Assembly (NCBI GenBank): GCA_934096945.1
Contig: CAKOND010000005.1
Location: forward strand, 18,088 to 82,087
Reading direction: 5' to 3'
DNA: 64,000 bases
Source of the DNA: an uncultured Bacilli bacterium
GTDB lineage: Bacteria; Bacillota_I; Bacilli_A; RF39; UBA660
How positions within the stretch are numbered: the first letter of the stretch is position 1; every line of letters begins with the position of its first letter. Made by a program: the position numbers and the translations under genes. The notes beneath the pieces were generated by a model. It did not search any database. It saw nothing but the letters and a program-made list of their open reading frames with translations, and had not been told where the DNA came from. This document shows, piece after piece, positions 5,169 to 64,000 of the stretch.

Positions 5169-6019
5169 AAAAAATATTTTTATTAATACTTAGTTTATTT
5201 TTACTAACAGGTTGTAGTTTAAAAAAGGATAATTTAGAAAATACTACAATTTATACTACGATTTATCCAATTAAATACTTAACAGAATTTATGTACAAAG
5301 ATTATTCAACAATTGAAAGTATTTACCCCGCTGGTGCTGATGTTACAACATATGAACTTACTGATAAACAATTAAAAAATTATGCTAAAGGAGATTTATT
5401 TATTTATAATGGTTTAAGTAATGAAAAGACTATAACTAAAAACTTAATCAATAAAAATAGAAATCTTCTTATTATAGACGTTTCAAATGGCCTTTCATAT
5501 ACTTATGGTATTAAAGAATTATGGATGAGTCCAAATAACTATTTAATGCTTGCTAAAAACATTAGAGATTATTTAAAAGAATATTTAGAAAGTAAAATTA
5601 TATCTGAATATGTAGATGAAAAATATAACGATTTATCAGAAATTTTATCAATAAAAGATGCTGACTTAAGGGCAATTGGTAAAGAAGCACAAAGCAAAGG
5701 TACAAATACTTTGGTAGTTAGTGACAATACATTTAAATTTTTAGAAAATTATGGATTTAATATTGTATCTTTAGATGAAGAAACTTTAACTGAAGGAACA
5801 CTTAATTCAATAAAAAATAATTTTAAAAAGGAAACTTATACGACAATATTTGTTTTAGATAATAATTATACTGATAATATTAATTCTATTGTAAATGATT
5901 ATAAAGCAAAAACTATTGATGTTAAGTCAATGATTAATGTAGATAGTAATGATAATGATGATTATTTAACTGTTATGCAAGATTTTATTGATAATATTAG
6001 AAATTTTTGCATTAGATAA
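5165..6019 (+). CDS. ZnuA/TroA-like (cluster A) solute-binding lipoprotein
   Basis: Lipobox LLTGC. The pattern TIYPIKYL...[13 protein letters not shown]...[11 protein letters not shown] resembles metal-binding SBPs, but the usual His ligands are not evident. ATGA overlap with yidD. Confidence 0.65.
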
Positions 6020-11114: not shown

Positions 11115-11800
11115 TTTATTTCAATGCCTCCGAATAAGGCGAAACCATCTACATAAATTGTTTTCTTCGCATTCTTATTTGCTTTTTCATCCATACTTTC
11201 ACTTGTTACTCCGCCGAATATTGGTGTAGATTTAATCTTTACTTCTACATCTTTTGGAACGAGAATTGTTATACCTGCAAAGATAGCACTTGCTTTAATA
11301 TATGTTTCATTTTTTAAATCAGCATCTCTTAAGTCTAATTTAATAGAACCAAAAACAGCATCTAAATTAGCTTTTTCAAATTTTTCTTCAGATTTATTAA
11401 TATTTTGTTCTCCGAATGTCGCAGTTATTACTTCAACATTTGAAAAATCAGCATTATCTATTTTTTCTTTAACATCTGCTTTAATCTTATTTCCAAATAT
11501 TAAAGAAAGACCTATGATAACCACTATAGCTGGTAACAAAATTTCCCATAGAATGTCAAAATCAAATACATCTAAACTACCTAAAAGAAGAAAAATACCA
11601 ATTACTAAACATATCGCAGATGATACTTTTCCATTATTTTTAGGGTTAACTAAAGATATAGCACTTGGCACAATAATAAATAAAGTCCACCAACCATCAA
11701 AGAATATGTTAATGTCTGTTACTCCGGTTCTGTTTAAACCCCAGATAACACCAATAACTATCAAAACAACTCCCCATAAAATACGACTTAAATTTTTCAT
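11111..11800 (-). CDS. LiaF-like cell-wall-active-antibiotic response protein
   Basis: Multi-TM N-terminus and a LiaF/DUF2154-like C-terminus (VFGSIKLDLRDADL...GITILVPKDVEV...FGGIEIK). Overlaps the downstream gene by 4 nt. Confidence 0.6.
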   Translation of the reverse strand: MKNLSRILWGVVLIVIGVIWGLNRTGVTDINIFFDGWWTLFIIVPSAISLVNPKNNGKVSSAICLVIGIFLLLGSLDVFDFDILWEILLPAIVVIIGLSLIFGNKIKADVKEKIDNADFSNVEVITATFGEQNINKSEEKFEKANLDAVFGSIKLDLRDADLKNETYIKASAIFAGITILVPKDVEVKIKSTPIFGGVTSESMDEKANKNAKKTIYVDGFALFGGIEIK

Positions 11801-11823
11801 CTAAACTCACCCTTTCTTAAGTC

Positions 11824-14010
11824 TTAAATATTAATTGGATTAAAATCTATTTCTAATCTAATATCCTTATTCATTATAAACAAATTATCTAGTTCTTTCA
11901 AGTATTTTCTTAAATTATCACATTTTTTATATTTTAATATTATTTGCATTCGGTATTCATTATTAAATTTAAATACTTGCGCAGTTGTTGGTCCTAGAAC
12001 AATTACATCATTTAAATTTTTATCTAAGTAAGTTTTAACTTTCTTGCTGGTTTCTATTGTATTTTGATAATCTTTACCTATTACTTTTAAACTCACTAAA
12101 TAAAAATATGGCGGATATTTAAGTTTTTGCCTAAAGTTCATTTCATGAAGATAAAACTTATCATAACTATTTTCTTGGACACATTTTATCACATAATTAT
12201 CGGGATTAAATGTTTGAATAATAACCTCACCAGGTGATGTGCTTCTACCACTTCGGCCCGCGACTTGATGAAGAAGAGAAAATGTATTTTCACTTGCCTT
12301 AAAATTAGGGATATTTAGTGTAGTATCAGCATTAATAACTCCAACTAGGGTTACTTTAGGAAAATCTAATCCTTTACTAATCATTTGTGTTCCTAGTAAA
12401 ATATTATATTTTTCATTTTTAAAATCTTCAATTATTTTTTCATGAGTGCCTTTATTTCTTGTTGTATCTTGATCCATTCGAACAATACTTGCACTAGGCA
12501 TTAACTCTTTTAATTTTTCTTCCAGTTTTTCGGTTCCAAGTCCATAATAATTTAAAGCCTTTTCATGACACTTTGGACATACATCTTCACAGCGCTTTTG
12601 ATAACCACAATAATGACATATTAAATTATTAGTACTTTTATGATATGTTAGGGTTATATCACACGATGGGCATTTATATGTAAAACCACAATTACTACAT
12701 GTAATAAAGGTTGAAAAGCCTCTTCGATTTAGAAGTAAAATAATTTGTTCATTTTTAGATATTTTTTCTTTCATTTTAGAAATAAGTAGATCACTAAAAA
12801 TCATATTTTTTTTCTTCATTTCATCTTCCATATTTACTACATATATCTTAGGTAAAATGGCACTGCCCACTCTATTTTTTAAAGTAAGTAACGTATAAAC
12901 GCCTTTATCTGCTCTAGCTTTACTATCTAATGATGGCGTTGCACTTGCAAGCACAACAGGAATATTATTATATTTTCCACGGTATATTGCTATATCTCTG
13001 GCATGATATCTTGGATTATTATCTTGTTTATAGCTACTTGCATCTTCTTCATCAATAATTATAATACCTAAATTTTGAAGGGGAGCAAATATAGCACTTC
13101 TGGTGCCTACCACAACATGAACTTCCCCGCGATATATTTTTAAATACTCATCATATTTTTCACCTTCAGATAAAGAACTATGTAAAATAGCAACATCACT
13201 TCCAAAGGCTTCATAAAATCTTTTGGCAATTTGATGTGTCAGGCTAATCTCAGGAACTAACACAATTCCTGTTTTACCTCGATTTATAACTTCTTCGATT
13301 AGCTTTATGTAAACTTCAGTTTTTCCAGAACCAGTTATACCATAAAGTAAGAAAGGTTCATACTTTTCAAAGGAGTCCTTAACTTTTAAAAACACTTTAT
13401 TCTGATCATCAGTAAGTTTTTTTCTTATATTACTCCTTTCTTTATTAATTCGATATTTTTGTACCTTTTCAATATCTAGCACACCATTTCCAAGTAGTGT
13501 TTTAACTAAGGCTAGACTATAATTTTTCTTTAGGACTTTACCTTTTTCTAATAATTCATCTATTATTTTTATTTGACTCTTTCTTTTATTTTGGTAAAGA
13601 TTTTTATATTCTAATGCTTTTTCTTTATCTTTAATAAATATATATTCATCATATAAATCATAATTAGATTTTTGCTTTTTTACTTTTAAACTAGAAGGAA
13701 GCATTGTTTGATAGGCAGTAATTAATGTACATAATGTATTTTCAGATAAATACTTACCTAAATCCATCAGTTCTTTATTTAAAACTAATTTTTCATCCAC
13801 AATGCTTGATATGTACTTAATTTCATATGATACATCTTCTTTTAAAGTATTTAAAATGTCAGTTATGAAACCCACGACTTCTTGATAACCAAACGGAACC
13901 ATTACTTTCATTCCCACTTTAAGATTATCCCATAGAGCATTTGGAATCATGTATATAAATTCTTTATCTAATTTTTTGATGCTATATTCTATAATAACTT
14001 TTGCGTACAT
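11824..14010 (-). CDS. priA: primosomal protein N' (replication restart helicase PriA)
   Basis: GITGSGKTEVY Walker A, IIDEED box, Cys-rich zinc cluster CSNCGF..CPSCD..CHYCGY..CPKC. I prefer the start MYAKVIIEY (GGAGG SD) over the track start at 14064. Confidence 0.9.
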   Translation of the reverse strand: MYAKVIIEYSIKKLDKEFIYMIPNALWDNLKVGMKVMVPFGYQEVVGFITDILNTLKEDVSYEIKYISSIVDEKLVLNKELMDLGKYLSENTLCTLITAYQTMLPSSLKVKKQKSNYDLYDEYIFIKDKEKALEYKNLYQNKRKSQIKIIDELLEKGKVLKKNYSLALVKTLLGNGVLDIEKVQKYRINKERSNIRKKLTDDQNKVFLKVKDSFEKYEPFLLYGITGSGKTEVYIKLIEEVINRGKTGIVLVPEISLTHQIAKRFYEAFGSDVAILHSSLSEGEKYDEYLKIYRGEVHVVVGTRSAIFAPLQNLGIIIIDEEDASSYKQDNNPRYHARDIAIYRGKYNNIPVVLASATPSLDSKARADKGVYTLLTLKNRVGSAILPKIYVVNMEDEMKKKNMIFSDLLISKMKEKISKNEQIILLLNRRGFSTFITCSNCGFTYKCPSCDITLTYHKSTNNLICHYCGYQKRCEDVCPKCHEKALNYYGLGTEKLEEKLKELMPSASIVRMDQDTTRNKGTHEKIIEDFKNEKYNILLGTQMISKGLDFPKVTLVGVINADTTLNIPNFKASENTFSLLHQVAGRSGRSTSPGEVIIQTFNPDNYVIKCVQENSYDKFYLHEMNFRQKLKYPPYFYLVSLKVIGKDYQNTIETSKKVKTYLDKNLNDVIVLGPTTAQVFKFNNEYRMQIILKYKKCDNLRKYLKELDNLFIMNKDIRLEIDFNPINI

Positions 14011-32830: not shown

Positions 32831-34618
32831 CTAATTTATTATGATTGGGTCTTCAGCTGTACCTTGGCCTGATTTATATGCCGTTGAAGATGAGAGACTG
32901 AAGGACGGGCGCACTCCATAGATGCCGTCCACACCGTCGTAGTTCACGAAACCATCGTAGTACACACCGAACGCATGGTACGAACCGCCCGCAGCACGGG
33001 AAATAGTCCATTCCAAGACTCCTCCATATAACCAATTTTCTCCCTTCGAAAATCTATAATCCTTTGTTGCATCAGTATTATTAAATCCAACCAATGTCCA
33101 CGCTCTTGGTCCTGCCGCATAATAATAATCACTTACATACATCAATCCTATTTTTGCTCTATATTCTGCTTTTCCATCTGTTGTATTTGTTGTTACTGCA
33201 TTTGTTATTTCATTTTGATATGCTACTGATGGTGTTTTTGAAGCTATATTTTCAAATGTATTTCCTCCAACTTTCCAGGTTGTTGTTGCTATTTTTTTTG
33301 CCCATTCTGTTCCAATGTTATTTAAAAAATTTGTATTTAAATTTACTTTATTTAAATTACTTTCACTCCATGTATTTTTTGCTGCAATATTCCAGAAATA
33401 TAATGAATTACTTGCTGGACTTTCTCCTTGTTCTCCACTAAAGTAAGATGAATATTCTTGTGAAAAAACTCCATCTGTTCCTAGTAAACTTGATTTTGCG
33501 TAATCCCATTTGATTAGTTTTACATTATTTCCAAATACTCCAATTATTCTATATAAATTTTCTGTTGGACATGGACTTGATGTCGAGCCAAAACATACAA
33601 AGTTATTTACATTATCTTTTGTCAAATATCCTTTTTCTACTGCTTTATTTAATGTTTCTTTATATGTTTGATACTGTGTTGTATCTCCCTTTATTAAATA
33701 ATAATGTGCTTGTGATGCATCGCATTCATAACCTACATATTGTTTCGTTCCATTACAATAAAAATCTATTAATGCTGTTGTTACTGTATTATTATATCCT
33801 ATCATCATTGTTGCTCCGGTTGCTTTTCCTGTTTCCGTTAAGACATAATCTCCGCCTGCATATCTGTAACTATTGTCACCTGCTCCGTTTGTGAGACTAC
33901 TATCATGATAATAGATATTATTAGCTCCTTGAGTTCCTGTATATAGTGATTTTACATGATCAGCTAATAAGTTTATCTTTTCCTTTTGTATCATCACTTT
34001 TGCACTCATACTTTTTCCTGCATTACCATTTTGATTAGCATCATAGTTTACAAATGTTAATTTTATATTCCACTTTTCTTCTTTACTTGGACTTGCTGTT
34101 ATTTCTCTATTATTAAATAGTGTTATAAGTCCATTCTTATTTGTTATATCATATCCTGATACTAATGCTCCACTTCCATCTGTTACTGATGTATGTGTTA
34201 ATCCTGATATATCTGTTACTTCTGTTCCTGCACTATTTGTAACTGTTAATATTAATTCTGGTGTACTTTCATTTATTGAATATGTAAATGAATTATTAGA
34301 AATATTTAAATATACATAATAATGTTCCGTCGCAGTATTTGTCTTATTATTTGCTGTAAGAGTTGCTTTTGCAAAAGTGCTTCCAACTGCATTACCTTTG
34401 CCACTTGCAAATGAACTTTGATCAGCATAGATACCTATATCATCACCTGTTGTAAAAGTAAATACATCTGTTGTATATGTTGTTACATTTAAGTTTGCTG
34501 ATGTTGGTTCTCCACCTTGGGCAGTAAAATATGCATATGTTGCTCCGATTAATAACAACATAAATGTTGTTATTGCTATTACACTTAATATTATTGGTTT
34601 ATTTTTATTATTTTCCAT
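32831..34618 (-). CDS. secreted/surface protein, paralog A; C-terminal lectin-like module with hypervariable cassette (putative DGR target)
   Basis: 595 aa. The N-terminal hydrophobic segment + GATYAYFTAQ resembles SipW-type (TasA/camelysin-class) signal peptides. The N-terminal ~215 aa and the C-terminal module are homologous to ORF 60697..62100. The C-terminus reads EWTISR...GVRPSFSL. Confidence 0.75.
   Translation of the reverse strand: MENNKNKPIILSVIAITTFMLLLIGATYAYFTAQGGEPTSANLNVTTYTTDVFTFTTGDDIGIYADQSSFASGKGNAVGSTFAKATLTANNKTNTATEHYYVYLNISNNSFTYSINESTPELILTVTNSAGTEVTDISGLTHTSVTDGSGALVSGYDITNKNGLITLFNNREITASPSKEEKWNIKLTFVNYDANQNGNAGKSMSAKVMIQKEKINLLADHVKSLYTGTQGANNIYYHDSSLTNGAGDNSYRYAGGDYVLTETGKATGATMMIGYNNTVTTALIDFYCNGTKQYVGYECDASQAHYYLIKGDTTQYQTYKETLNKAVEKGYLTKDNVNNFVCFGSTSSPCPTENLYRIIGVFGNNVKLIKWDYAKSSLLGTDGVFSQEYSSYFSGEQGESPASNSLYFWNIAAKNTWSESNLNKVNLNTNFLNNIGTEWAKKIATTTWKVGGNTFENIASKTPSVAYQNEITNAVTTNTTDGKAEYRAKIGLMYVSDYYYAAGPRAWTLVGFNNTDATKDYRFSKGENWLYGGVLEWTISRAAGGSYHAFGVYYDGFVNYDGVDGIYGVRPSFSLSSSTAYKSGQGTAEDPIIIN
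32900..33010 (-). repeat. putative DGR variable region VR-A (GC-rich, adenine-depleted cassette)
   Basis: See findings. It aligns gap-free with 60766-60876, and differences are almost exclusively at codon positions 1-2. Confidence 0.65.
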
Positions 34619-34829
34619 GTTATGACTTCCTTTTTTATCCTAAATTAATGATAACAAATATTTTATTATTTGTAAATAGTATACAGAAAAAAAAAGCTAC
34701 TACAAAATAATATAGTAACTTATAAATCTAAACTATTTTCATTTAACAAAAATTCAGTTTCTATTGAATTTAAAACTAATATATCCTCCATTACGAATTT
34801 TTTCCGTTTACGTACTTTTTTCGTAATGA

Positions 34830-35492
34830 TTATTTACTACTTTTAAAATTTTGATACCAATCATTTAGTTTATCTTTAGTACTTGAAAATAGTATTGATC
34901 CTGAATTTTTCACTAAATTAAAAGTACTTTCACTGAACTTCGCAAGTTCATCTTTAGCATATATAATTGAATTATAATTTTCTTCCCCTAGTTTTTCTTT
35001 AGCAAATTCATTTAAATTATTTGCTCCATTTGCAATAATTTCACTAGCTTTTTTATAAGCATTACTGGTTTTACTAGATATTTCTTCTTTATATCCTGGG
35101 GCTTTATTTTCAAGATGCATATCTATTTTACTAGCAAGTTCTAAAATTTTTTCTTTACCACTTGTTGTAAGCTTATCAAAAGTAACATTTTTTATGGTAC
35201 CATTAAAAAACAAAAAATCTACGATTGTTATAAATGTTTCTTTGGCTTTATCACTAAAATTAGGCAAATTTGCTTCTTTTTCTATACTATCTAAAGTATT
35301 ATTTAGCTCATTTATTACTAATAAATCATTATCACTATATGATGTACTTTCTTCTTTAGGCATTATTCTTTCTGTCTTTTCTTCATTACTTTTAAATATT
35401 ACATCTTTTTTAGTATAAACAATGCCTATTAAAATACCCATGATTAGAAATGTAATACCCACTCCTACAGTTATTAATGTGCTTTTTTTCAT
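34830..35492 (-). CDS. hypothetical membrane-anchored protein
   Basis: N-terminal TM helix and a helical K/E-rich ectodomain. Confidence 0.5.
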   Translation of the reverse strand: MKKSTLITVGVGITFLIMGILIGIVYTKKDVIFKSNEEKTERIMPKEESTSYSDNDLLVINELNNTLDSIEKEANLPNFSDKAKETFITIVDFLFFNGTIKNVTFDKLTTSGKEKILELASKIDMHLENKAPGYKEEISSKTSNAYKKASEIIANGANNLNEFAKEKLGEENYNSIIYAKDELAKFSESTFNLVKNSGSILFSSTKDKLNDWYQNFKSSK

Positions 35493-53809: not shown

Positions 53810-54968
53810 GATTATCACCTGCAACTAGTCCAGTTATAAAACTTATAGTTAAGTTATAGCCTCCACAATCGCCATCTAAATCAAGTACTTCTCCAGCAAA
53901 ATAAAGATTTTTAACAAGTTTAGACTCCATTGTTTCTAAATTTATTTCTTCTAAAGATACACCACCACTAGTTACCTGCGCATCTAAATAACCTTTAGTA
54001 TCTATAATTTTAACTTTAAAATTAGTTAAAGTCTCGATAAATTTATTCTTTTCATCTATTTTTAATTCACACCATTTTTTATCTTTAATTTTTAAATATT
54101 TAAGAAACAAATTAGTTAATTTATAATCTAAAAATCCATCACATATATTGGTTAAATATTTATCTTTATTTTCTTCCATGTATTTGCTTAAATCATCTGT
54201 CCATGGGCAAAAGTTAAGTTTTACTTCACATGTTTTTTCTTCGTTTAAAGCAAGTCTTATATCACGACTTAAATTAAAAATACAAATACCACTTAAACCA
54301 AAACTAGTAAGTTGTAGTTCACCATGTTCTTCTTTTACTTTTGCTTTATCAATATAACTTGAAACATTTACCTCGCATCTTGTGCCAGTCCACTCTTTTT
54401 CTAAACCGGTATTTGTTTCTAGTGCCATTAAAGATGGATTTAAATTAGTTACTTTATGGCCAAAAGCTTTAGCTAATGAAAAGCCTTCACCAGTACTTCC
54501 AGTCTTCGGATAACTAAGACCACCGGTTGTAATAATTACTTTATCAAAAACTTCACCATTAATAATAAATTTATCATCTTTTCTTTTTATATTCTCTATA
54601 TAAGTATTAAATCTCAAATCTACATCTAAAGAATTCTTTAGACATGATAAAACACTAGATGATTTTTCACTATATGGATAAAGATAGCCATTTTTATCTT
54701 TTAAAACTAAACCTATTTCTTTGAAAAAGTTATTTACTTTATCTAAATTTTTATCATTTATTATCTTTTTTATAAGTTCTTTATTACTTGAATGATACTT
54801 ACTTAAATCATTATTAGTATTACCAATATTACATCTTCCACTTCCAGTTAAAAGGAGCTTTTTACCAGCATCACTATTTTTCTCAAATACCACAACATCA
54901 TGCATCTTTGACATGATTTTAGCTGCTGCTAAACCTGCTGGGCCTGCCCCAATAATTGCCACTTTCAT
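53802..54968 (-). CDS. NAD(P)/FAD-dependent oxidoreductase, HI0933/BaiN-like
   Basis: IIGAGPAGLAAA, GSGRCNIGN, C-terminal GGYNL. Confidence 0.8.
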   Translation of the reverse strand: MKVAIIGAGPAGLAAAKIMSKMHDVVVFEKNSDAGKKLLLTGSGRCNIGNTNNDLSKYHSSNKELIKKIINDKNLDKVNNFFKEIGLVLKDKNGYLYPYSEKSSSVLSCLKNSLDVDLRFNTYIENIKRKDDKFIINGEVFDKVIITTGGLSYPKTGSTGEGFSLAKAFGHKVTNLNPSLMALETNTGLEKEWTGTRCEVNVSSYIDKAKVKEEHGELQLTSFGLSGICIFNLSRDIRLALNEEKTCEVKLNFCPWTDDLSKYMEENKDKYLTNICDGFLDYKLTNLFLKYLKIKDKKWCELKIDEKNKFIETLTNFKVKIIDTKGYLDAQVTSGGVSLEEINLETMESKLVKNLYFAGEVLDLDGDCGGYNLTISFITGLVAGDNHD

Positions 54969-57900
54969 GCCATCACCTCTATTTCTTTTACTTTGTTATC
55001 TAGTATTGAATATAAATATAAGTAAACTTCTTTATCACTTATACTTTTTACATAATCATAATATATACTTAATTGTTTAATATAGTTTTCATCATCTATA
55101 TTTTTAAGTTTGTAATCTATAATAAATATTTTGTCACTATACTCTAACATTAAATCTATAATACCATGATATTTAATATCATCTTTTTCAAACATAAACT
55201 CTAGTTCTTGATAAACTTCTGCATTTTTAAAATCAAAATTTTCTAATAATTTAGTTATATACTTATTATCAGTTTTGACAGTTTTAAAATCAGTTAATTC
55301 AAATATTTCATGCATTTGAGTACCAAATTCTAAAGTCTTAGCTTCTTCTTTAGTTAAAATGTTCTTTATTGTTTTAGATGCATGTTTCTTTTCTATTTCT
55401 TCATACAAAACTTCATCATCATATATGACCATTTCTTCTTTTGAGCTTTCTAAATTTCTGCTTATTGCTTTACTAAATTCATATTCTTTAGATAGACCAA
55501 TATTATTTAAATTAATACTTGTTACATATTTTGCTATATTACCATATATACTTTCTAAAAAATTATAAAATGACCTAAAATTTAAACCTTCCAGAAAATC
55601 CACTTCCTCGCAATGTCTAGTTTTATCTTTTACTTCAGGCATCACCATGATAATCTTTTCTTTAGCTCTGGTTAAAGCTACATAAAATAGTCTTATTTTT
55701 TCTGCTACTTCATTTAAATAATATTCATTTTTAACAAGTTGTTTAATAAACACTTCACCAATACCATCTTTATAATATGGCGATATAATTCCATACTTAT
55801 TATCAAACATAAATTTATTTTTTAAATCACTTAAATTAAATGTTTTGGGAAAACCTGTAAAATAACATATTGGAAATTCAAGTCCTTTTGATTTATGAAT
55901 ATTCATCATTTTAACAGATACACTACTTGATTTAGCTTCTTTATATTTTATTTCACTACCAGAAGCTGCTAAGTCTTCGAGATACTTACTAAAGTCTTCA
56001 CTTGTAAAACCTAAGCTTTCCACATTTTCAGCTAACCCTAGCAAATAATTCATTCTCTTTATACCAGCATCAACATTACCCACTAAAATAAATTTTTCAT
56101 AAAAATTAAAATCTTCAATAATTTTCTTTAAAAGCATACTAGGTGTTAGTTCATCTATAATCTCACTTATTTCTTTACAGATTTTAAATACTTCACTTCT
56201 AAATATGCCATGATTTTCTAAATCATTAAATATTTCAGCATCATTTAAGCCACCAATATAGCTTCTAGCAACACTAGTAAAATAATATCTAAACTTTTTA
56301 TCATAAACTTCATTTTTAATAGAAAAACATAAATTAATAATATTTTTAATAATATAAATATCATTTTCTTCCATTAGATTACTATCTTTATATATTTCCA
56401 TTGGTATATTAAAGTACTCAAATACTTTCTTAAATAAATTCATTTTACTACCACGATCAAGTATAATACAAAAATCATTATAAGTAGCTTTTCGATTTTT
56501 TTCTAAGTCAAAATCATATACTTCATAATCCTCAGTAATTTTCTTCTTAATATCATTTGCTATTATAAAAGCTTCAATTTCATCATTTGAATACTTCTTA
56601 TCATCATTATTATATGTATAAATATCCATATAATTATTGTTATTATTAGCCCCAAGAGTAACATAAGCCTTGTTACCAAATATCATAGCATGACTTTCTT
56701 TATAATTTATACCCCCGAGTTCTTTAGTCATAAGGCGAGCAAATATTTCATTAATATTAAATAAAACTTCTTCTCTTGACCTAAAATTTTTAAGTAAATC
56801 TATTTTTATACCACCATCATGATTACTATATTTATCATATTTATTTTTAAAAATTAAAGGATTAGCATTTCTAAATCTATATATAGATTGTTTTATATCT
56901 CCGACCATATAAACATTATTATTTTCTATATATTTAATAAAGTTTTCTTGTAAATCACTTGTATCTTGATATTCATCAATCATTATTTCATTAAATTTAT
57001 TTTTAAGCTCTTCTCTGATACTTTCGTTTTCTTCAACTATTTTAATAGCCATTTTAGCTATATCTGTAAATTCATAAGCATCAAATTCTTTCTTAAAAGC
57101 ATTTATTTTATCATCAAGTTTATGAATAATTTCTATAATTATTTCAGCATAATCTCTAGTACTTAAATATGCACTTTTTAATTCTTCTTCACTATAAAAT
57201 ATTAAGTCACTTAATGTTTTAAATGTATCTTGAATATTTTCTTTTAAAGCCTTACCTTCTTCATCTAATTTAGTAAACTTTTCTAAAGTACAATCTTTAT
57301 ACTTATATAAATCATTAAAGTTATGCGGAGAAAAAAGATTAGAAACACTATCATATAATTTTTGATAAGATGTACTATCCATAAACTCACCTATTTCAAG
57401 TACCATATTTTCTAAAGATTCAGCTAAAGATTTAACATATTTAAAGTATTCATCAAAACATTTATTTACATATTCATCACTATAAAAGTTATTTACATAA
57501 TTACCTAAATAATTCTCTTTATCATATTTTAAATCAAGTAATCTATTAATACTTAAAACTGAATCCTTTATTAATGCATCATCTCTGTTAGTAAAATCTT
57601 CAATTAATTTTAAAAATCTATCGTCTTTTTCTTCATAAAATTCTTCGAATATTTCTTCTAAAAATTCTTTTCTTTTTAAATTAATAATTGATGCATCAAT
57701 TATACTAATATCTTTGCTCATATTAAGAACATAATGATACTTTTTAACTAAATTTAAAGCAAATGCATCAAATGTGGTAATATATGCTTGATCTAAATAT
57801 TCAAGTTGGTCTTTTAAACCTGCTTTTTTTATTTTTTTTCTAATTCTATCAGCCATTTCTCCGGCAGCTTCATTAGTAAATGTTAGCATTAAAATATTTC

Positions 57901-58048
57901 TAATATCTATGCCATCTTTAAGTTTTCTTATCACTCTTTCTGATAATACTGCAGTTTTACCAGAACCAGCACCCGCAGATACTATAATATTTTTACCTTC
58001 TAAGTTAACTGCCTCATTTTGTTCAAAAGTTAAATTCATCTTTTCCAC
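54965..58048 (-). CDS. addA: helicase-nuclease AddA (ATP-dependent DNA helicase/nuclease subunit A)
   Basis: GAGSGKT, IDEYQDTS, VGDIKQSIYRFRNA, FYVALTRAKEK, C-terminal RecB-type nuclease (GIIDLM...IIDYKLK). Confidence 0.9.
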   Translation of the reverse strand: MEKMNLTFEQNEAVNLEGKNIIVSAGAGSGKTAVLSERVIRKLKDGIDIRNILMLTFTNEAAGEMADRIRKKIKKAGLKDQLEYLDQAYITTFDAFALNLVKKYHYVLNMSKDISIIDASIINLKRKEFLEEIFEEFYEEKDDRFLKLIEDFTNRDDALIKDSVLSINRLLDLKYDKENYLGNYVNNFYSDEYVNKCFDEYFKYVKSLAESLENMVLEIGEFMDSTSYQKLYDSVSNLFSPHNFNDLYKYKDCTLEKFTKLDEEGKALKENIQDTFKTLSDLIFYSEEELKSAYLSTRDYAEIIIEIIHKLDDKINAFKKEFDAYEFTDIAKMAIKIVEENESIREELKNKFNEIMIDEYQDTSDLQENFIKYIENNNVYMVGDIKQSIYRFRNANPLIFKNKYDKYSNHDGGIKIDLLKNFRSREEVLFNINEIFARLMTKELGGINYKESHAMIFGNKAYVTLGANNNNNYMDIYTYNNDDKKYSNDEIEAFIIANDIKKKITEDYEVYDFDLEKNRKATYNDFCIILDRGSKMNLFKKVFEYFNIPMEIYKDSNLMEENDIYIIKNIINLCFSIKNEVYDKKFRYYFTSVARSYIGGLNDAEIFNDLENHGIFRSEVFKICKEISEIIDELTPSMLLKKIIEDFNFYEKFILVGNVDAGIKRMNYLLGLAENVESLGFTSEDFSKYLEDLAASGSEIKYKEAKSSSVSVKMMNIHKSKGLEFPICYFTGFPKTFNLSDLKNKFMFDNKYGIISPYYKDGIGEVFIKQLVKNEYYLNEVAEKIRLFYVALTRAKEKIIMVMPEVKDKTRHCEEVDFLEGLNFRSFYNFLESIYGNIAKYVTSINLNNIGLSKEYEFSKAISRNLESSKEEMVIYDDEVLYEEIEKKHASKTIKNILTKEEAKTLEFGTQMHEIFELTDFKTVKTDNKYITKLLENFDFKNAEVYQELEFMFEKDDIKYHGIIDLMLEYSDKIFIIDYKLKNIDDENYIKQLSIYYDYVKSISDKEVYLYLYSILDNKVKEIEVMA

Positions 58049-58116
58049 CTCTTTTAATATCGCACATTAAATTTTGTTCATTCATACGGATATTTTATAA
58101 TTTATCCGTATCATCG

Positions 58117-60438
58117 TCAATTGGTTTTGCTATCTTCAAGTATTACTTCATCATCTTTTGTTTTAAAACATATATCTTTAAATTTACAATAAGTACATGC
58201 TATATTTTTACCACCAAGTACCTTGGGATTAATATTAAAATTACCTTCCACAATATTCTTTATAACATCATCTATAATCTCATTTACTTTAATTATTAAA
58301 TTATCCATCTCTTCATTAGATAACACTTTACTAGTACTATAAAAAGAACCATCTTTCTTAAATCTTAAACCTTTTATCATTTTACTATCTTTATAGTTAC
58401 TATCAAGAAGACTCATTATAGTTTCATTACTATTGGTATAGCCAGATAGTCTTAAGTTTTCTTTCTTTAAAGTTTCTAAAGACTTAACTTTATCTCTATT
58501 TAAAACATTATTAAGTACTCTTTCTATATAAAAACCTGCAATAATAGAGTCTTTAAATCTATCACTTGTTTTAAGTAAATATAAATATATTGGAAGTTGC
58601 ATATTAAGACCATATTCTAAAGTATCAAGTTTTATATTCTTATCCCCAGTTTTATAATCTACTACTGCTATTACTTCTTTATCATTATATTTAGTGGTCA
58701 TAACTTTATCTATAAAACCTTTAAAGTTCACCTTTACTCCATTATACTTTTTTTCCACATTAAGTTCTGTTTCAAATAAATAATCATTTAAACTACTTGT
58801 CTTTCTTTGTTCTTTTAAATATTTAAGTAAAAAGTCTATTTCTTTAGCAAGAATATGAATATAAAATAGTTCTCTTTCTTTAAATTCAAAATCTAATTCT
58901 TTAATAAATAAACTTATCTCTTTTTCAATATCTATTTCTTTATTTATACCAATCTCTAATATATGATGCACAATCTGTCCAATTATAGTTTTAAATGTTT
59001 CTTCAAAAACATCAAGATTTAATACTTTAGATAAATAATATCTAAAACTACATTCATTAAAATTTTCAAGACTTGTATATGAAAGTGTTACTCCTTCTTC
59101 AAGTCTTTCTTTAAGTAAAGTATTATCTACACTAGTAAATTTATTATTATATTCTCTATATGGAATATTTAGATTATTTTGATATATTTTTAAATACTTA
59201 CTTTCATCATTATATTTATATAAATTATCTAAATCCATAGCATACTCAAGTTCACTATATTTTTTGCTGAAAGACACTTTTTTATCTATATCTATTTTCT
59301 TTACCTCAAGTCCTAAATCTTCAATTAAGCTTGATGGATATAAAGCTCCATTATCGCCATGCATAGAATAACTTATACTTAAACTTGGAATATTATATAT
59401 TAAATTTATAACATTATCTTTATTTATCTTATTTATTTCTAAAGATGTATCAAGTCCTAATTTATTCTTTATATTATCACTTAAAAAGTCATCATCTTTT
59501 TCTACTTTAGGATAACTACCTATATTAAAGCCAAGTAAAAACACATAGTCACTTTCACTATAAACCTCTTCAAGAGAATGTAACTCTATAGCATTTTTAT
59601 ATATAGTATTACTAACTTTAGCTTGTTTTAAATCCCTTTTAATAAACTCTTTTCTTATATTTTTATTCTTTACTTGTACAGACTTATTTATAATAGTAAT
59701 AAGTTCATTTACATTACTATACTTACCACTTAAATATTCTATTACTTCATCTATTTCTTTATTATCATAAAATTTCAAAAATTCTTTAGAAATACTTAAA
59801 CTTAAAAAAGATGTACTACTTTCTATATTAATTGGTACTTTAAATAATTTAAAATAGTATTCTAAATGTTTATAATATTCTTTACTTGCAATTAGTTTGA
59901 TATTATTAATATTTATCCCTTTTTTAAGTAATTTCTTTATTTCAATAATTACATGCTCTACTTCTTCACATATATCTTTTGCTTCATATACACATGGCTT
60001 ATAACTATTTTTTTCTAATTTTTCTAATTTATAGTTAATACCATCTAAAATTAATTTTTCTTCTTTAGTTAATACATCTTTACCATAGATGGTAACTTTT
60101 TGATTAAGCATATATTTTCTAAATTTATCATCATATATAAGTAAATTTTGTTCATCTAATTCTTTTCTTAATTCATTTAAAAACTTTACTTTTTCATCAT
60201 CAATATCTTTTAAAAAGTATAAATTATCTAAATAAATCTTAGCTATATTAATATTTACATTATATTTATTTATAATATATTCTAAAGCTCTATCATCATA
60301 ATCAAAGAATAACTTTTTTTTAAGTTCTTTAAACCCTAAAAATTTATTATTATTAAATTTCTTTTCCATATTTATTTTCTTCAATAATTCTATTTTATTA
60401 AATTCATTAGTTATTACTACATTCATAATATACCTCAT
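58117..60438 (-). CDS. addB: AddB/RexB-like nuclease subunit (short, 773 aa)
   Basis: C-terminal PD-(D/E)XK + Fe-S pattern: CSFRYYL ... VDYKTGDK ... CTYCKFKDIC. It has no Walker A and is shorter than Bacillus AddB. The start could be the ATG at 60426. Confidence 0.8.
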   Translation of the reverse strand: MRYIMNVVITNEFNKIELLKKINMEKKFNNNKFLGFKELKKKLFFDYDDRALEYIINKYNVNINIAKIYLDNLYFLKDIDDEKVKFLNELRKELDEQNLLIYDDKFRKYMLNQKVTIYGKDVLTKEEKLILDGINYKLEKLEKNSYKPCVYEAKDICEEVEHVIIEIKKLLKKGININNIKLIASKEYYKHLEYYFKLFKVPINIESSTSFLSLSISKEFLKFYDNKEIDEVIEYLSGKYSNVNELITIINKSVQVKNKNIRKEFIKRDLKQAKVSNTIYKNAIELHSLEEVYSESDYVFLLGFNIGSYPKVEKDDDFLSDNIKNKLGLDTSLEINKINKDNVINLIYNIPSLSISYSMHGDNGALYPSSLIEDLGLEVKKIDIDKKVSFSKKYSELEYAMDLDNLYKYNDESKYLKIYQNNLNIPYREYNNKFTSVDNTLLKERLEEGVTLSYTSLENFNECSFRYYLSKVLNLDVFEETFKTIIGQIVHHILEIGINKEIDIEKEISLFIKELDFEFKERELFYIHILAKEIDFLLKYLKEQRKTSSLNDYLFETELNVEKKYNGVKVNFKGFIDKVMTTKYNDKEVIAVVDYKTGDKNIKLDTLEYGLNMQLPIYLYLLKTSDRFKDSIIAGFYIERVLNNVLNRDKVKSLETLKKENLRLSGYTNSNETIMSLLDSNYKDSKMIKGLRFKKDGSFYSTSKVLSNEEMDNLIIKVNEIIDDVIKNIVEGNFNINPKVLGGKNIACTYCKFKDICFKTKDDEVILEDSKTN

Positions 60439-60466
60439 TAATTAATACATTAATATTATATCATTA
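60421..60466. repeat. 46-bp direct repeat DR1 (addB start codon + leader)
   Basis: ATTCATAATATACCTCATTAATTAATACATTAATATTATATCATTA matches 62891-62936 at 44/46 positions. Weaker homology continues to ~60528 / ~62970. Confidence 0.9.
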
Positions 60467-60473
60467 AGCTACT

Positions 60474-60503
60474 TAAAAAGATAATGTTTTTTGCATTATC
60501 TTT
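60474..60503 (-). terminator. Rho-independent terminator of paralog-B transcript
   Basis: On the minus strand: AGATAATG-caaaaaa-CATTATCT followed by TTTTT. This lies in the 31-nt stretch that is absent from DR2. Confidence 0.7.
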
Positions 60504-60544
60504 GAAATTTTGAAACTCTACGTAATTATAATGGGGTTACTTAT

Positions 60545-60696
60545 AAGTATGTTGATAACTCGGCGCCGCTGCCTCACCTCGCACAAACCGCGAGACTCGG
60601 CAGTTGGGTCTTCCACCACGCCAATCTCTTCACTTCGCATTATTTTGCACCCGGCCTGACCTAGCACGCGGACGCGCTAGACAGGCATGTCCGATC
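60545..60696 (-). other. GC-rich (~60% by hand count) structured non-coding element 3' of paralog B, unknown function
   Basis: Hairpins CTAGC(A)CG-cgga-CG(C)GCTAG (60661-60680) and CTGCC-tcac-CTCGC-acaaacc-GCGAG-actc-GGCAG (60569-60603). There is no long ORF and no similarity to the VR. Confidence 0.5.
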
Positions 60697-62100
60697 CTAG
60701 TTTACCACAATCGGATCAGCGGCTGTGCCGCTTCCCGATGCATAGTTCACGGAAGATGAAAGATTGAAGGACGGCCGCACCGCAGTGCTGCTGTACACAA
60801 AGTTGTTGTACACGTAACCACCGAAGTACACAAAGAACGCACTGATCGAAATGTCCGCACTACGGGAAATAGTCCATTCTGTAGCACCTATATACATCCA
60901 ATTTGCACTTTTGATGTCTGTTCCATCATAATCATAAAAATTTGTTATCCATGCACTTGGGGCTGCTGCAAATCCATAATCACTTGCATACATTAAGCCT
61001 ATTTTTTTATTTACACTTGGTGATGAATTAATTTCATTTTGATATACTGCTTTGGCTGGTTGGCTAATGCTAATATTATTAAATCCTCCAACCTTCCATG
61101 TTGTTTCTGCTATATTACCTTTTGTTGTTTCATCAAATGCATTTAAAAAATCATTATTTAAATATGTATTTAGACTTGATGTTGACCATGTATTATTACC
61201 ATTACCATCCCAGGCTTTTCCTCCTACAGATGTTGATTTGATTAATTTTACTTGGTTTCCAAATACTCCTATTATTCTGTACAAATTATCTGTTGGACAT
61301 GGTGTTGTACTTCCAAAACATACAAAGTTATTTACACTTTCACTTGCTCCGGCATATCTATAACTATTGTCACCTGCTCCATTTGTTAGTGTACTAGTAT
61401 GATGATAAATATTATTTGCCCCTTGAGTTCCTGTAAATTTACTTATAACATAACCTGCTAATAATTGTTTTTTTTGTATCATCACTTTTGCACTCATGCT
61501 CTTACCAGCATTAGCACTTTGACTTGCATCATAGTTTACAAATGTTACTTTAATATTCCATTTTTCTTCTTTACTTGGGTTTGCAGTTATTTCTCTATTA
61601 TTAAAGAGTGTTATAAGTCCTGATTTATTTGTTATATCATAACCTGATACTTGAGTTCCATTTGCTCCAGTTACGATAACATGATTAAGTGTACTTATAT
61701 TGGTTACTTCATTACCACTACTATCTGTTACTGTCATTATTATTTCTGGTGTATTTTCATTTATTGAATATGTAAATGTATTACTTTCTATATTCAAATA
61801 CAAGTAATAATGTTCTGTTGCTGTATTTGTTTTATTATTTGCTGTGAGCATTGCACTTGCATATGTACTTCCTGTTTGATTTCCTTTTCCACTTGCAAAA
61901 TTATCTTGATTTATACTAAATGATATTGCACTACCACTTGAGAATGTAAATGTATCCACAGTATTTGCATTAACTTTGATGTCCGCTACTGCTGGATCCC
62001 CTACTTGAGCTTGAAAATATGCATATGTTGCAGTTACTACTGTGAGCGCTAATGCTACTATTGCTACTATACTTATTATTTTTGCCTTTTTATTTTCCAT
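60697..62100 (-). CDS. secreted/surface protein, paralog B; C-terminal lectin-like module with hypervariable cassette (putative DGR target)
   Basis: 467 aa. The signal segment + TATYAYFQAQ and residues ~70-215 are near-identical to paralog A. It lacks A's ~130-aa central insert. The C-terminus reads EWTISR...AVRPSFNL. Confidence 0.75.
   Translation of the reverse strand: MENKKAKIISIVAIVALALTVVTATYAYFQAQVGDPAVADIKVNANTVDTFTFSSGSAISFSINQDNFASGKGNQTGSTYASAMLTANNKTNTATEHYYLYLNIESNTFTYSINENTPEIIMTVTDSSGNEVTNISTLNHVIVTGANGTQVSGYDITNKSGLITLFNNREITANPSKEEKWNIKVTFVNYDASQSANAGKSMSAKVMIQKKQLLAGYVISKFTGTQGANNIYHHTSTLTNGAGDNSYRYAGASESVNNFVCFGSTTPCPTDNLYRIIGVFGNQVKLIKSTSVGGKAWDGNGNNTWSTSSLNTYLNNDFLNAFDETTKGNIAETTWKVGGFNNISISQPAKAVYQNEINSSPSVNKKIGLMYASDYGFAAAPSAWITNFYDYDGTDIKSANWMYIGATEWTISRSADISISAFFVYFGGYVYNNFVYSSTAVRPSFNLSSSVNYASGSGTAADPIVVN
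60766..60876 (-). repeat. putative DGR variable region VR-B
   Basis: Gap-free codon alignment with 32900-33010; see findings. Confidence 0.65.
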
Positions 62101-62259
62101 AATTTACTTATCCATCCTTTAACAATATCACACTGGATATTCTCTTTACTATATACTATATTTTAAACAACAAAAAAATAAAAAAAAACATCATATTAAC
62201 GCAAAATTAAAATTTGGCCTAAATATCTTTTCTATAATATTATCATATAAACAATATAC

Positions 62260-62892
62260 TTATAAATTTTCAATTAAAAATACCAACACCTGCAAATAAA
62301 CTTTAAAAGTATTTTCATCTACAAATCCAAGTAATGTTTTTTCTGATAATTTAACAAAGAAAATTCTTTTGATTTTGCATTAGGTTCAATCACAGAATAT
62401 TGAAATTTTTTTGATGCATTTTGAAGTTGCAAAGATAATGAATTATATATTTTTCTAATTTTTAAAGTTTCTAAAGAATTGTTAACATGATTGTTCATAC
62501 CATTTAAAAAAAGTTAAGTCATGCAATAATTCAGAAACACTATCAGGCATACCACCAGAAAGTAAATATTCTTTATAATATGATAAAGCTTTATCATGTA
62601 TAAGCCCCATAGCTTTATTTTTATCAAAACATTCTTTAATTCTATCAAGTAATGCATCTTGATTAAAAGTCATTAAGAATTCTTCAAAATCTATGGGATA
62701 CATATCAATTCTAGAAACTTTACCTACTGGAAAAGGTCTATTTAATCTTGATAATTTAACCCCGAGTAAAGAACCAGCACATATAATTCTTACATTACTA
62801 TGTTTTTCATTGAAAAATTTCAGTTCTGAAATTAATTCTTCATATTTAAAATTATTTTTTATAATATTTAAATTCATTTTTACAAAATTCAT
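62260..62892 (-). pseudogene. decayed AAA-ATPase/DUF4143-family gene (no P-loop N-terminus; frameshifted C-terminal part)
   Basis: ORF 62482..62892 holds the middle region (..ICAGSLLGVKL...FPVGKVSRIDMYPIDFEEFL...GGMP). Downstream, other frames still read ..SKKFQYSVIEPNAKSKEFS.. and ..FKVYLQVLVF.. . Confidence 0.55.
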
Positions 62893-62936
62893 TCATAATA
62901 TACCTCATTAATTAATACATAAATATTATGTCATTA
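62891..62936. repeat. 46-bp direct repeat DR2 (second copy of addB start/leader)
   Basis: See DR1. It includes a second ATGAGGTATATTATGAAT that opens only a short ORF. Confidence 0.9.
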
Positions 62937-63085
62937 TCTTTAAAATTTTATTTCTTTGCTTCTACGATTACCTGAAAGCATACCATTTGCAAAATAATTA
63001 TTATATTTTTCTGTAAATAAATTTTAAGTGGTGTTGAAGATCTTAAATTTTAGCAAAAAAAGATAGAAAACTTAATTCCTATCAT

Positions 63086-64000
63086 TTATTTTTCACTTTT
63101 GTTTTTAAATTGTAACATTATAGGTGTTCCATCAAAGTCAATATTATTTCTAATTTGATTTTCTAAATATCTTTCATAACTAAAATGAACTAATCCTTTA
63201 TTATTTACTGAGAATGTAAATTTTGGTGGACATGTTCCAGTTTGACTTACAAAATATATTTTAAGTCTTTTGCCTTTATATGATGGGGGTTCATGCATGC
63301 TTACTGCTTCCATTATAATGTTATTTAAAACTGATGTTTTTACTTCTTTTCTGTTATTATTATAAGCATTTATTACCTCAGGCATAAGTCCCGATAATCT
63401 TTTTTTAGTCTTAGCACTTAAAAATACAGTGTGAGCATAAGGTATGAATTGGAATTCATTTTTTATATTCTCTTTCCATTTTCTTATATCACTATCTGGA
63501 TTATTTATTGTATCCCACTTATTTACACATATAACTATACCTTTTCCAGCATCTAAAGCATAAGATGCAATATGTTTATCGTGCTCAATAATACCAGTTG
63601 ATGCATCAATTACTAAAACACATACATCACTTCTATCAATTGCTTTAAGACTTCTAATTAAACTATATTTTTCAACACTTTCATAAATTTTACCTTTTTT
63701 ACGCATTCCAGCAGTATCAATTACCGTTATATCTTCATGATTATATTTAAATTTAGTATCAATTGCATCTCTAGTTGTACCCGCTACATCACTTACAATA
63801 GCTCTTTCTTCATTTAATATAGCATTAATTAAACTACTTTTTCCTACATTTGGTCTACCTATTATACAAAATTTAAGAGAACTATCTTCTATTTTTACTT
63901 CTTCTGATAAATCACTAGTAATTGTATTTAATAGGGTATCAAAACCTATGTTGTGAGATGCACTGACTGCCATTAGATCACTAAATCCAAGTTCGTAGTA
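63086..64000 (-). CDS. der: ribosome-associated GTPase Der/EngA (3' two-thirds; continues beyond right edge)
   Basis: Second G domain GRPNVGKSSL, DTAGMRKK, NKWD, and a KH-like C-terminus. The frame is open past the track Met at 63973 (..ELGFSDLMAVSASH..). Confidence 0.9.
   Translation of the reverse strand, partial: YYELGFSDLMAVSASHNIGFDTLLNTITSDLSEEVKIEDSSLKFCIIGRPNVGKSSLINAILNEERAIVSDVAGTTRDAIDTKFKYNHEDITVIDTAGMRKKGKIYESVEKYSLIRSLKAIDRSDVCVLVIDASTGIIEHDKHIASYALDAGKGIVICVNKWDTINNPDSDIRKWKENIKNEFQFIPYAHTVFLSAKTKKRLSGLMPEVINAYNNNRKEVKTSVLNNIIMEAVSMHEPPSYKGKRLKIYFVSQTGTCPPKFTFSVNNKGLVHFSYERYLENQIRNNIDFDGTPIMLQFKNKSEK

Follow-up and report, generated by a model that had tools for sequence, protein, structure and literature searches.

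A second addB leader copy as the probable scar of microhomology-mediated recombination in an uncultured RF39 genome

Classical duplication genetics in Salmonella and E. coli established RecA-independent tandem duplication between microhomologies, an event that leaves a scar at the join point. The locus described here lies in a window of 64,000 nucleotides, the whole stretch of DNA that was analysed, from an uncultured lineage of Bacilli. It resembles such a product in that a joint fuses the 3′ end of a putative unit (the start of addB) to an internal 5′ point (codon 37 of an ATPase gene), and in that two direct repeats, DR1 and DR2, are spaced 2,470 bp apart, which is the length of the unit. 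It differs in that a second full unit is absent, with just 60 nt left upstream of the joint; that the upstream flank consists of der, its terminator and a Hint-gene fragment rather than topA and ATPase codons 1–36; and that the gene-B remnant linked to topA is not a close copy of gene B.

A second relevant process is homology-facilitated illegitimate recombination (HFIR) with 3–10 bp of microhomology, which is given as established in PMC6382021 (citing de Vries & Wackernagel 2002) and is described there in Acinetobacter baylyi, Streptococcus pneumoniae and Pseudomonas stutzeri. The likenesses are that the added segment is anchored at one end by long homology (addB here) and attached at the other through a 3-nt overlap within a partly identical patch, and that the outcome is added DNA together with a short duplication of anchor-proximal recipient sequence. 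The differences are that the product here could also arise within the genome, and that a foreign donor, like competence in this uncultured lineage, is hypothetical.

Elements that leave target-site duplications or att sites likewise form a discrete block flanked by direct repeats, but the present locus has no recombinase, no terminal inverted repeats, no same-ended copies and no empty site, and one of its repeat ends is a gene fusion. Gene B, which lies between the repeats, is like the target genes of diversity-generating retroelements (DGRs), which have C-terminal variable regions, in that its GC-rich C-terminal region is common to gene A and many paralogs in a genome of 27% GC, and in that RVT_1 genes occur elsewhere in the assembly. 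It differs in that no reverse transcriptase or template repeat (TR) is present at its locus and no TR was identified in the assembly. The DR1/DR2 repeats are unrelated to DGR homing. A literature search for DGRs in RF39 found no paper.

The repeat pair

The features of the locus described below are on the minus strand. The addB gene (58117..60426; Pfam PDDEXK_1) encodes an addB/rexB-type nuclease subunit and is followed by addA (54965–58048; Pfam UvrD-helicase). Its start supported by a Shine–Dalgarno (SD) sequence is at 60426, whereas the longest ORF runs from 60438, and the gene callers on the ENA contigs give a length of 769 aa; exact-protein look-ups with addB and der returned the same contigs alone. 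DR1 (60420..60511) is the native addB upstream region and start, kept upstream of addB in five congeners (G009, G043, G044, G011 and G018). It contains a terminator, an extended −10-like box (TGATATAAT), the SD sequence GAGGT and the start ATGAATG, which agrees with the initial annotation in placing the addB ATG and its leader inside the repeat: DR1 is where addB has its native promoter, ribosome-binding site and start. The leader was found in six close relatives, where its sole strong match is at addB.

The cores of DR1 (60420–60466) and DR2 (62890–62936) are identical at 45 of 47 bases, and are the same repeat as the 44/46 match first noticed between 60421–60466 and 62891–62936. A repeat search extends the pair to 69 nt at 86% identity (60398–60466 and 62868–62936, spacing 2470), although the extension is ATPase sequence that resembles addB codons by chance. 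The 47-nt core is the longest direct repeat with at most two mismatches in 58000–64000, compared with 18–25 nt for the longest such repeat in 30 first-order Markov simulations. A genome-wide blastn-short search found just two copies of the core in the 1.19-Mb assembly, and we therefore ruled out a dispersed intergenic motif.

One large indel does separate the copies, at the terminator of gene B as the initial annotation had it, but the spacings of the repeat families on either side (2470 and 2438) give its size as 32 nt rather than 31. This terminator (60477..60503) is a hairpin with a 10-bp stem and a 7-nt loop followed by a U-run, and addB is preceded by the same hairpin in G009 and G043. 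The 32-nt deletion in DR2, flanked by TAATG...TAATG, takes away the loop, the 3′ arm and 15 more bases, so that DR1 folds to a 10-bp stem (−8.1 kcal/mol) and DR2 has no hairpin. The patchy homology reported beyond the 46 bp is real on the upstream side, where it amounts to 18 nt more (AAAATTTYAAAGATAATG, 60494–60511 against 62932–62949). On the downstream side it falls outside the duplication: AATGAATTTAA represents ATPase codons K-N-E-F-K that resemble the addB codons T-N-E-F-N. The CGTAGA similarity falls within the 3′ fragment of an unrelated Hint-like gene. An Rfam scan of 60300–63200 at E≤1 gave no match.

DR2 as a chimeric junction

DR2 (62890..62949), defined by the repeat search and alignments, consists of the left arm of the gene B terminator, the 32-nt deletion, a −10-like box (TGACATAAT), the SD sequence GAGGT and ATGAATG. 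Three-way alignments divide it at this last motif. To the left, DR2 matches the addB leaders of this genome (G000), G009, G043 and G044 at 45–47 of 48 positions; to the right, the addB match ends and about 33 of 35 positions agree instead with the orthologous ATPase genes of G009, G016 and G044, this half corresponding to ATPase codons 37–52. The addB leader is thus joined in frame to ATPase codon 37, with a 3-nt overlap within a similar patch, the shared ATG of TATATTATGAATG|TA (addB) and TACATTATAGATG|AA (ATPase), in which 12 of 15 positions are identical. At the level of sequence, then, DR2 is a chimera of the addB leader plus ATGAATG and an AAA_14/DUF4143 ATPase gene from codon 37 onwards, with microhomology at the junction. 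The initial annotation, which saw in the repeats an insertion or duplication scar, had the right kind of event: DR2 marks a point of recombination at which a second addB 5′ end is found. This second leader copy is unique to the present species, where it occurs in two strains; the exact junction pattern had no match in genome contigs or in JGI metagenome contigs, where the species seems absent. The two strains have identical DR2 sequences but differ by SNPs in the adjacent pseudogene, which could hint at constraint, although DR2 is just 60 nt long.

The ATPase gene (62258..62889) is a truncated, non-functional pseudogene. It retains about residues 37–52 and 97–306 of about 424–432 and matches the Pfam AAA_14 profile at positions 73–129 alone. 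Codons 1–36, including GVRQCGKT, are gone, so that the Walker A region is replaced, and the remnant has neither the Walker A P-loop nor the DUF4143 C-terminal domain that mark the family. The gene has lost 133 nt in one deletion and 344 nt at its 3′ end in another, the latter between GGTATTTTTAAT repeats; it also carries a frameshift, and the frame that opens at the SD-linked ATG of DR2 ends after 14 codons. In G009, G016 and G044 there are intact or near-intact orthologs, with AAA_14 and DUF4143 domains where intact and about 90% amino acid identity, flanked by topA on one side and by gene B or addB on the other.

A separate ATPase remnant, fused to a fragment of a different gene-B paralog, lies beside the genome's own topA on contig C3, and from this and the remnant on C5 (the contig of this locus) it follows that two ATPase copies once existed. 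The two short remnants are equidistant, at about 92–93%, from each other and from the orthologs, and no derived sites common to both were found. The topA-linked gene-B fragment shares 84% identity with C3:39758–40076 and just 73% with gene B, and therefore is no recent twin of gene B.

On the other side of DR2 lies an orphan 3′ fragment (62940..63020) of a Hint-like secreted-protein gene family, comprising 26 codons (LFTEKYNNYFANGMLSGNRRSKEIKF) and a stop codon. It aligns to the 3′ ends of full genes in G009, G011, G015, G016, G018 and G041 and on contig C6 of the present genome; the full C6 paralog has a weak PT-HINT match, below Pfam's cut-off. The fragment meets DR2 at an AAAATTTYAA microhomology, and every other junction of the interval likewise has a short-repeat or microhomology signature. 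Next comes the der terminator (63055..63083), a hairpin and T-run with a fold of −7.6 kcal/mol, which is the last sequence collinear with the der loci of relatives. The der/engA gene itself (63086..64000; Pfam KH_dom-like and MMR_HSR1) is represented by its 3′ two-thirds, the full gene of 434 aa, an ORF of that length on C5, extending past the window end; it shares 91–97% amino acid identity with congeners. Alignments from the der side with G009, G016 and G003 are homologous to about 63035 and then diverge. In eight of eight congeners inspected other genes come after der, homology with the present genome stopping just past the der terminator; the genes that formerly lay downstream of der are on C26 of the present genome.

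Gene B and the ancestral gene order

Gene B (60697..62100) encodes a protein of 467 aa with an N-terminal signal or transmembrane segment and a C-terminal DUF6273 domain (Pfam), and belongs to a family with 28 loci in the genome. Its upstream region (62101..62219) is common to paralogs, matching those on C18, C20 and C23 at 92% and one on contig C5 of G009 at 86%. The 3′ end of the gene contains a GC-rich, variable-region-like (VR-like) block (about 60752–60879) that matches 32886–33013 in gene A at 77% and is common to these two genes and about a dozen loci. Past the stop codon is a GC-rich non-coding tail (60545..60696), recognised by composition and kept in G009 and G003 and on C17 and C1 of the same genome; it has no Rfam match. 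We considered this tail as a template repeat of the VR and dropped the idea, as it has no similarity to the VR. ORFs with RVT_1 domains are present on C24 and C22, and a search beside these found no TR; C15 has a decayed RVT_1 ORF. The interval between the repeats thus has the contents originally listed for it, namely gene B with its GC-rich tail and terminator, and a decayed AAA_14 ATPase gene that abuts DR2.

The order topA-ATPase-geneB-terminator-leader-addB is that of related species, and it follows that the position of gene B beside addB is ancestral, as is the order from topA through the ATPase gene. G009, G003 and G005 have gene B or a paralog, GC tail, terminator, leader and addB in one contiguous block, a remnant of which is present in G043; the terminator-leader-addB block preceded by a gene-B-type GC tail is kept in G009 and G003, the terminator also in G043; and the ATPase gene is followed contiguously by gene B in G009 and G016. 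The ancestral upstream neighbour is topA, and in congeners it is never der. The interval preceding addAB has five different architectures across six close species. Relatives have one leader copy, invariably at addB and preceded by topA-side genes. Neither of the two outcomes that the initial annotation named as refuting its reading was observed: no congener has two leader copies, and the repeat is not dispersed.

Origin of the second leader copy

Our best reading, to which we assign a probability of about 80%, is that the repeats are the scar of microhomology-mediated illegitimate recombination, in which a copy of the addB 5′ end was fused to ATPase codon 37. Given the DR2 fusion, the 2,470 bp from repeat to repeat constitute one recombination unit, made up of the truncated ATPase gene, gene B, the GC tail, the terminator and the leader; on this reading the repeats record a duplication-type event and are neither a target-site duplication nor the att sites of a mobile cassette. 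The interval is best read as rearrangement-prone and decaying and, since the repeats are a scar and not the footprint of a mobile cassette, the scar as ordinary genome decay.

Two paths could have produced this recombination scar. An HFIR-like path is slightly favoured, although taken alone it falls just short of even odds. Here der and the Hint-gene fragment would already have stood directly before terminator-leader-addB, and a homologous segment (ATPase-geneB-leader-addB), supplied by a relative or by another copy, would have integrated into this rearranged locus by one crossover in addB homology and the other at microhomology, making DR2 the resident and DR1 the incoming copy. The other path, a serious possibility of about one chance in three, is a tandem duplication in situ at the same microhomologies, the upstream unit being lost by further rearrangement. 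Later, slipped deletions between short repeats would have eroded the ATPase copy, and the 32-nt deletion between two TAATG repeats would have cost DR2 half of its terminator. No donor, pre-event strain or full upstream copy of the unit was found, and no recombination-tract boundary was seen along addB-addA in identity to G009, G043 and G044. The ComEC channel gene is present; DprA was not found in the 70%-complete assembly.

The initial annotation proposed that the VR-bearing gene had arrived as a cassette in the der-addB region. A transposable or site-specific ATPase-gene B module, with 47-bp repeats as target-site duplication or attL/attR, would account for direct repeats around a discrete 2.4-kb block holding a member of a multi-copy family, and for G044, in which ATPase is followed by addB with one leader and no gene B. 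Yet G044 has this arrangement behind topA, not der; an empty der-addB site with a single repeat copy, the check suggested at the outset, occurs in none of the 56 congeneric genomes; and the gene order within the module is the ancestral chromosomal order, with gene B and addB already contiguous in congeners. A search for the same module elsewhere covered the 27 other gene-B family loci and found no repeat of at least 30 nt around any of them. Moreover, no transposase or integrase lies in or beside the module, whose ORFs are the ATPase remnant, gene B, der and addB, and the repeat is much longer than usual target-site duplications, its inner end being fused into the middle of the ATPase ORF. This reading is already largely refuted, and we consider it very unlikely. 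An assembly artefact, in which a metagenome assembler created the der-DR2-ATPase joint at a short repeat, might be suspected in a 70%-complete MAG of 33 contigs with a joint unique among species representatives. The copies, however, differ by two substitutions and the 32-nt indel, and three assemblies give identical sequence, one of them from MEGAHIT k141, with a word size exceeding the repeat. The joints also occur in a second strain, sampled separately, at about 25 SNPs per 1.6 kb (about 1.5% divergence), and an identical junction in a diverged strain means that this is not an assembly error; the artefact is refuted in practice, its probability being negligible.

Serial template switching in one replication-based step (MMBIR/FoSTeS-like) is suggested by the presence, within 200 bp, of several very short segments that differ in origin and meet at microhomologies: the der terminator, the 81-nt Hint-gene end, the 60-nt addB 5′ end and 45 nt of ATPase, before the rest. 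Successive independent deletions in a decaying region would give the same pattern, however, and comparable slipped deletions arose independently on C3, in G009 and in G044. A single event of this type seems improbable, and is in any case a sub-variant of the microhomology scar rather than a contradiction of it. It is likewise improbable, if marginally less so, that DR2 has been kept as a co-opted promoter and ribosome-binding site driving gene B, or expressing a small ORF; being about present use and not origin, this proposal is compatible with a scar. DR2 does retain a TG-extended −10-like box, an SD sequence and an ATG, without the terminator that precedes DR1 and with none between it and gene B, and it is identical in two strains that differ by about 1.5% nearby. 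Against this, gene B has its own upstream region, common to paralogs, the −10 box of DR2 is weakened by a T to C change at its first position, and 60 identical bases at 1.5% divergence are expected by chance about 40% of the time. A consensus promoter and terminator scan (17 sites against 20 expected) is uninformative in such AT-rich DNA.

As the scar of microhomology-mediated recombination, the locus documents, base by base, the reshuffling and erosion of the region before addAB in a reduced gut Bacilli genome, and neither annotation nor further work should treat the ATPase-gene B module as a mobile VR cassette bounded by att or target-site-duplication ends. The ancestral position of gene-B-type genes before addB is useful background for studies of the DGR-like family in this lineage. 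A further proposal, speculative and improbable, is that the repeats still have an effect: DR1 would recombine with DR2, so that the 2.47-kb unit could be deleted or amplified reversibly, the DR2 promoter would drive gene B, and capture of neighbouring promoters would be a general route of spread. If true, promoter capture mediated by microhomology or an anchor would spread a very large DGR-type surface-protein gene family, and change its dosage, in a small gut Bacilli genome. Deletion between DR1 and DR2, if it occurs, would join the left flank of DR2 directly to addB codons, giving ...AAAGATAATGACATAAT...ATGAATGTAGTAATAACT.

The repeat pair and its setting

Every gene of the der-to-addA interval lies on the minus strand of this assembly, G000 (1.19 Mb in 33 contigs, 27% GC, ∼70% complete), in which the window corresponds to C5:18088-82087. 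In coding order, der/engA (63086 to beyond 64000) is followed by the repeat copy DR2; an ORF of 136 aa (62482–62892) that holds the C-terminal half of an AAA_14 domain, with a 59-aa continuation after it; gene B (60697–62100), a DUF6273 gene with a GC-rich 3′ end and then a 150-nt GC-rich tail; the second copy, DR1; and addB (PDDEXK_1) and addA (UvrD-type). The most similar addB loci come from uncultured Tenericutes bacterium UMGS1410, uncultured Bacilli MAGs from the Hadza gut and Firmicutes bacterium CAG:460 (64%), which puts G000 with the uncultured gut Bacilli of small genome size. The longest addB ORF starts with ATGAGG at 60438; a second ATG, at 60426, has a good Shine-Dalgarno sequence within that ORF (GAGGT, 7 nt upstream) and is where gene callers place the start on ENA contigs, giving 769 aa. 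Translation probably does not include ‘MRYIM’ at the N-terminus.

The direct repeats that the initial annotation described around the gene B module are real. A repeat search aligns 60398–60466 with 62868–62936 (69 nt, 86% identity), and in the core, 60420–60466 against 62890–62936, 45 of 47 positions are identical. Allowing up to two mismatches, direct repeats in the 6-kb region reach 47 nt, compared with maxima of 18–25 nt in 30 Markov-1 simulations of that region. The similarity seems to run to 69 nt because T-N-E-F-N of addB and K-N-E-F-K of the ATPase share AATGAATTTAA. Since blastn-short finds only these two copies in the whole assembly, the repeat is not a dispersed motif. The copies differ by a 32-nt indel (spacing 2470 versus 2438) that takes from the gene B terminator its loop, its 3′ arm and the 15 nt that follow; in the DR1 context a 10-bp hairpin with Us behind it folds at −8.1 kcal/mol, whereas the DR2 context has no such fold.

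A native leader and a chimeric joint

DR1 is native to addB. In the congeners G009, whose addB has 93% amino acid identity, and G043, addB is preceded by the same terminator hairpin, TG-extended −10-like box (TGATATAAT), GAGGT Shine-Dalgarno sequence and ATGAAT start; in G044, G011 and G018 it is preceded by the leader alone. DR2 is a chimera. Up to ...GAGGTATATTATGAATG it is identical to addB leaders at 45–47 of 48 positions; beyond this point (AATTTTGTAAAAATGAATTTAAATATTATAAAAAA) the match to addB ends, and the sequence instead matches codons 37–52 (...TACATTATAGATGAATTTTGTAAAAATGAATTCAAG...) of the AAA_14/DUF4143 ATPase of G009, G016 and G044. The crossover point is a common ATG inside a patch identical at 12 of 15 positions, and the fusion was in frame, joining M-N of addB to E37-F-C-K of the ATPase. 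At its other end DR2 genuinely reaches 18 nt further, into the terminator's left arm (AAAATTTTAAAGATAATG), and its promoter copy is slightly weakened (TGACATAAT). Directly next to DR2 stands an orphan fragment, the last 26 codons of a gene of a Hint-like family (63020–62940), and ∼20 nt past this fragment lies the der terminator, where collinearity with the der loci of relatives stops.

The ATPase gene that follows DR2 is heavily degraded. Codons 1–36, the P-loop GVRQCGKT among them, have been replaced; a net 133-nt deletion past codon 52 shifts the frame; and additional small deletions are accompanied by a 3′ deletion of 344 nt between two GGTATTTTTAAT repeats. The reading frame from the Shine-Dalgarno-linked ATG of DR2 ends after 14 codons, and the 136-aa pseudo-ORF begins at an out-of-frame ATG.

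An assembly artefact is excluded. The strain is represented by two more public assemblies, one of them built with k=141, exceeding the repeat length, and both are 100% identical from der through DR2, the truncated ATPase, gene B and DR1 to addB. A homology search with the pseudo-ORF also recovered a variant at 96% that shares the frameshifted N-terminus; its contigs, from a different sample, differ from G000 by ∼25 SNPs over 1.6 kb and likewise contain the der terminator, the Hint fragment, DR2, the truncated ATPase and gene B. The joints are thus genuine and have become fixed in two strains or more.

Probable origin of the repeat pair

In congeners the interval upstream of addB is headed by topA. 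G009 has topA-ATPase-gene B (N-terminus) up to a contig end and, on another contig, gene B-...-gene B-terminator-leader-addB; G016 has ATPase-gene B; G044 has topA-ATPase-IS/HTH remnant-leader-addB and lacks gene B; G043 has topA-short gene-B-tail remnant-terminator-leader-addB and lacks the ATPase; and G003 has topA-gene B-GC tail-addB. From these orders, ATPase-gene B and gene B-terminator-leader-addB are the ancestral adjacencies. The interval is highly plastic, and the ATPase is decaying independently across lineages (5′ deletion in G009, frameshift in G044). Downstream of der, all eight congeners with that flank fetched have other genes (either a P-type ATPase or YhcG/DUF1016 nuclease genes with a 359-aa gene behind them), and none of the 56 species genomes of the genus yielded a second strong leader copy. 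In G000 itself, topA lies on contig C3; after it come the repeats native to the ATPase upstream region and a 73-nt ATPase remnant (∼aa 275–300) joined at TATTATTCA to an internal piece of a different gene-B paralog, then unrelated genes; the genes formerly downstream of der are on C26, behind other DNA. The G000 lineage has thus rearranged both loci.

We consider it likely, with a probability of about 0.8, that the repeat pair is a scar left by illegitimate recombination at a microhomology, which placed a duplicate of the addB 5′ end before ATPase codon 37. The earlier reading of an insertion or duplication scar holds in so far as the chimeric DR2 joint marks a scar; its proposal that gene B moved as a cassette into the der-addB spacer does not, given the ancestral gene order and the lack of a recombinase. 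A mobile element is likewise rejected: the module contains no recombinase, the G000 assembly has no second copy of the unit, and only one of the 28 gene-B family loci, that in the window, is bracketed by a repeat of at least 30 nt.

Two paths to the scar involve an equal number of events. An insertion resembling homology-facilitated illegitimate recombination (HFIR), a process that uses microhomologies of 3–10 bp (PMC6382021), would have brought an ATPase-gene B-terminator-leader-addB segment into a resident locus where der, the Hint fragment, half a terminator, the leader and addB already stood in that order, with one crossover within addB homology and the other at the microhomology. Alternatively, the 2,470-bp unit could have been duplicated in tandem in situ, a rearrangement afterwards removing the upstream unit. 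The insertion is slightly favoured: at only 73% similarity to gene B, the remnant of a gene-B copy beside topA on C3 does not readily fit a twin produced by recent tandem duplication. No donor was found, no recombination-tract boundary was seen along addB-addA, and the short ATPase remnants offered no informative sites. ComEC is present in G000; DprA was not found in this ∼70% complete assembly. One-step template switching would be a further variant. The scar is an ordinary case of a process already known, in an interval that is decaying and prone to rearrangement.

Neighbouring variable loci and gene families

The topA-side ATPase remnant (C3:62121-62655) lost codons ∼1–275 between TGTAAA repeats, and an MBOAT gene and ileS lie 3′ of its fusion; here the same ancestral locus decayed independently, through microhomology. 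Between the ATPase and addB of G044 (G044:C2, L019, ∼5140-5930), an opposite-strand HTH/IS-like ORF remnant replaces gene B, and a GC-richer, hairpin-rich stretch of ∼100 nt (AGGGTGGCGACCATCCGAAGGTGGTCAGC...) lies directly 5′ of the addB leader. The addB of G003 (L036) is 77–80% identical to that of G000 over its first ∼900 nt (window 59500-60420, the 5′ third) and 91–96% further on (58000-59200), which suggests a recombination mosaic in one lineage. YhcG/DUF1016 PDDEXK nuclease genes, in tandem after der in G009 (L010, G009:C20) and in several copies in G000 (C3:111220-113336, C10:21036-21914), are another multi-copy family marking variable spots.

The gene B family is unusually extensive for a small genome, with 28 loci or fragments in G000; its members have a DUF6273 C-terminus and, in many cases, a GC-rich VR-like end. 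The non-coding tail 3′ of gene B (60545-60696) is conserved at two other G000 loci, C17:∼7960-8190 (84% identity) and C1:∼34750-34990, and has orthologs in G009 (L004) and G003 (L005). No Rfam family matches the tail, nor does it duplicate the VR. The motif at its 3′ end, TATCAACATACTTATA, also terminates a GC-rich stretch at C15:1-165, directly 5′ of a frameshifted RVT_1 gene, and because of this recurrence the tail may be an RNA or TR-spacer part of a DGR cassette.

The Hint-like family comprises secreted proteins of ∼400 aa ending in ...LFTEKYNNYFANG[ML]LSGNRRSK, with a weak PT-HINT match below the cut-off. Several loci occur per genome across the genus, including C6:∼11545-12750 in G000, and at C11:281-362 of G009 a Hint-like 3′ end has a gene-B-type gene behind it.
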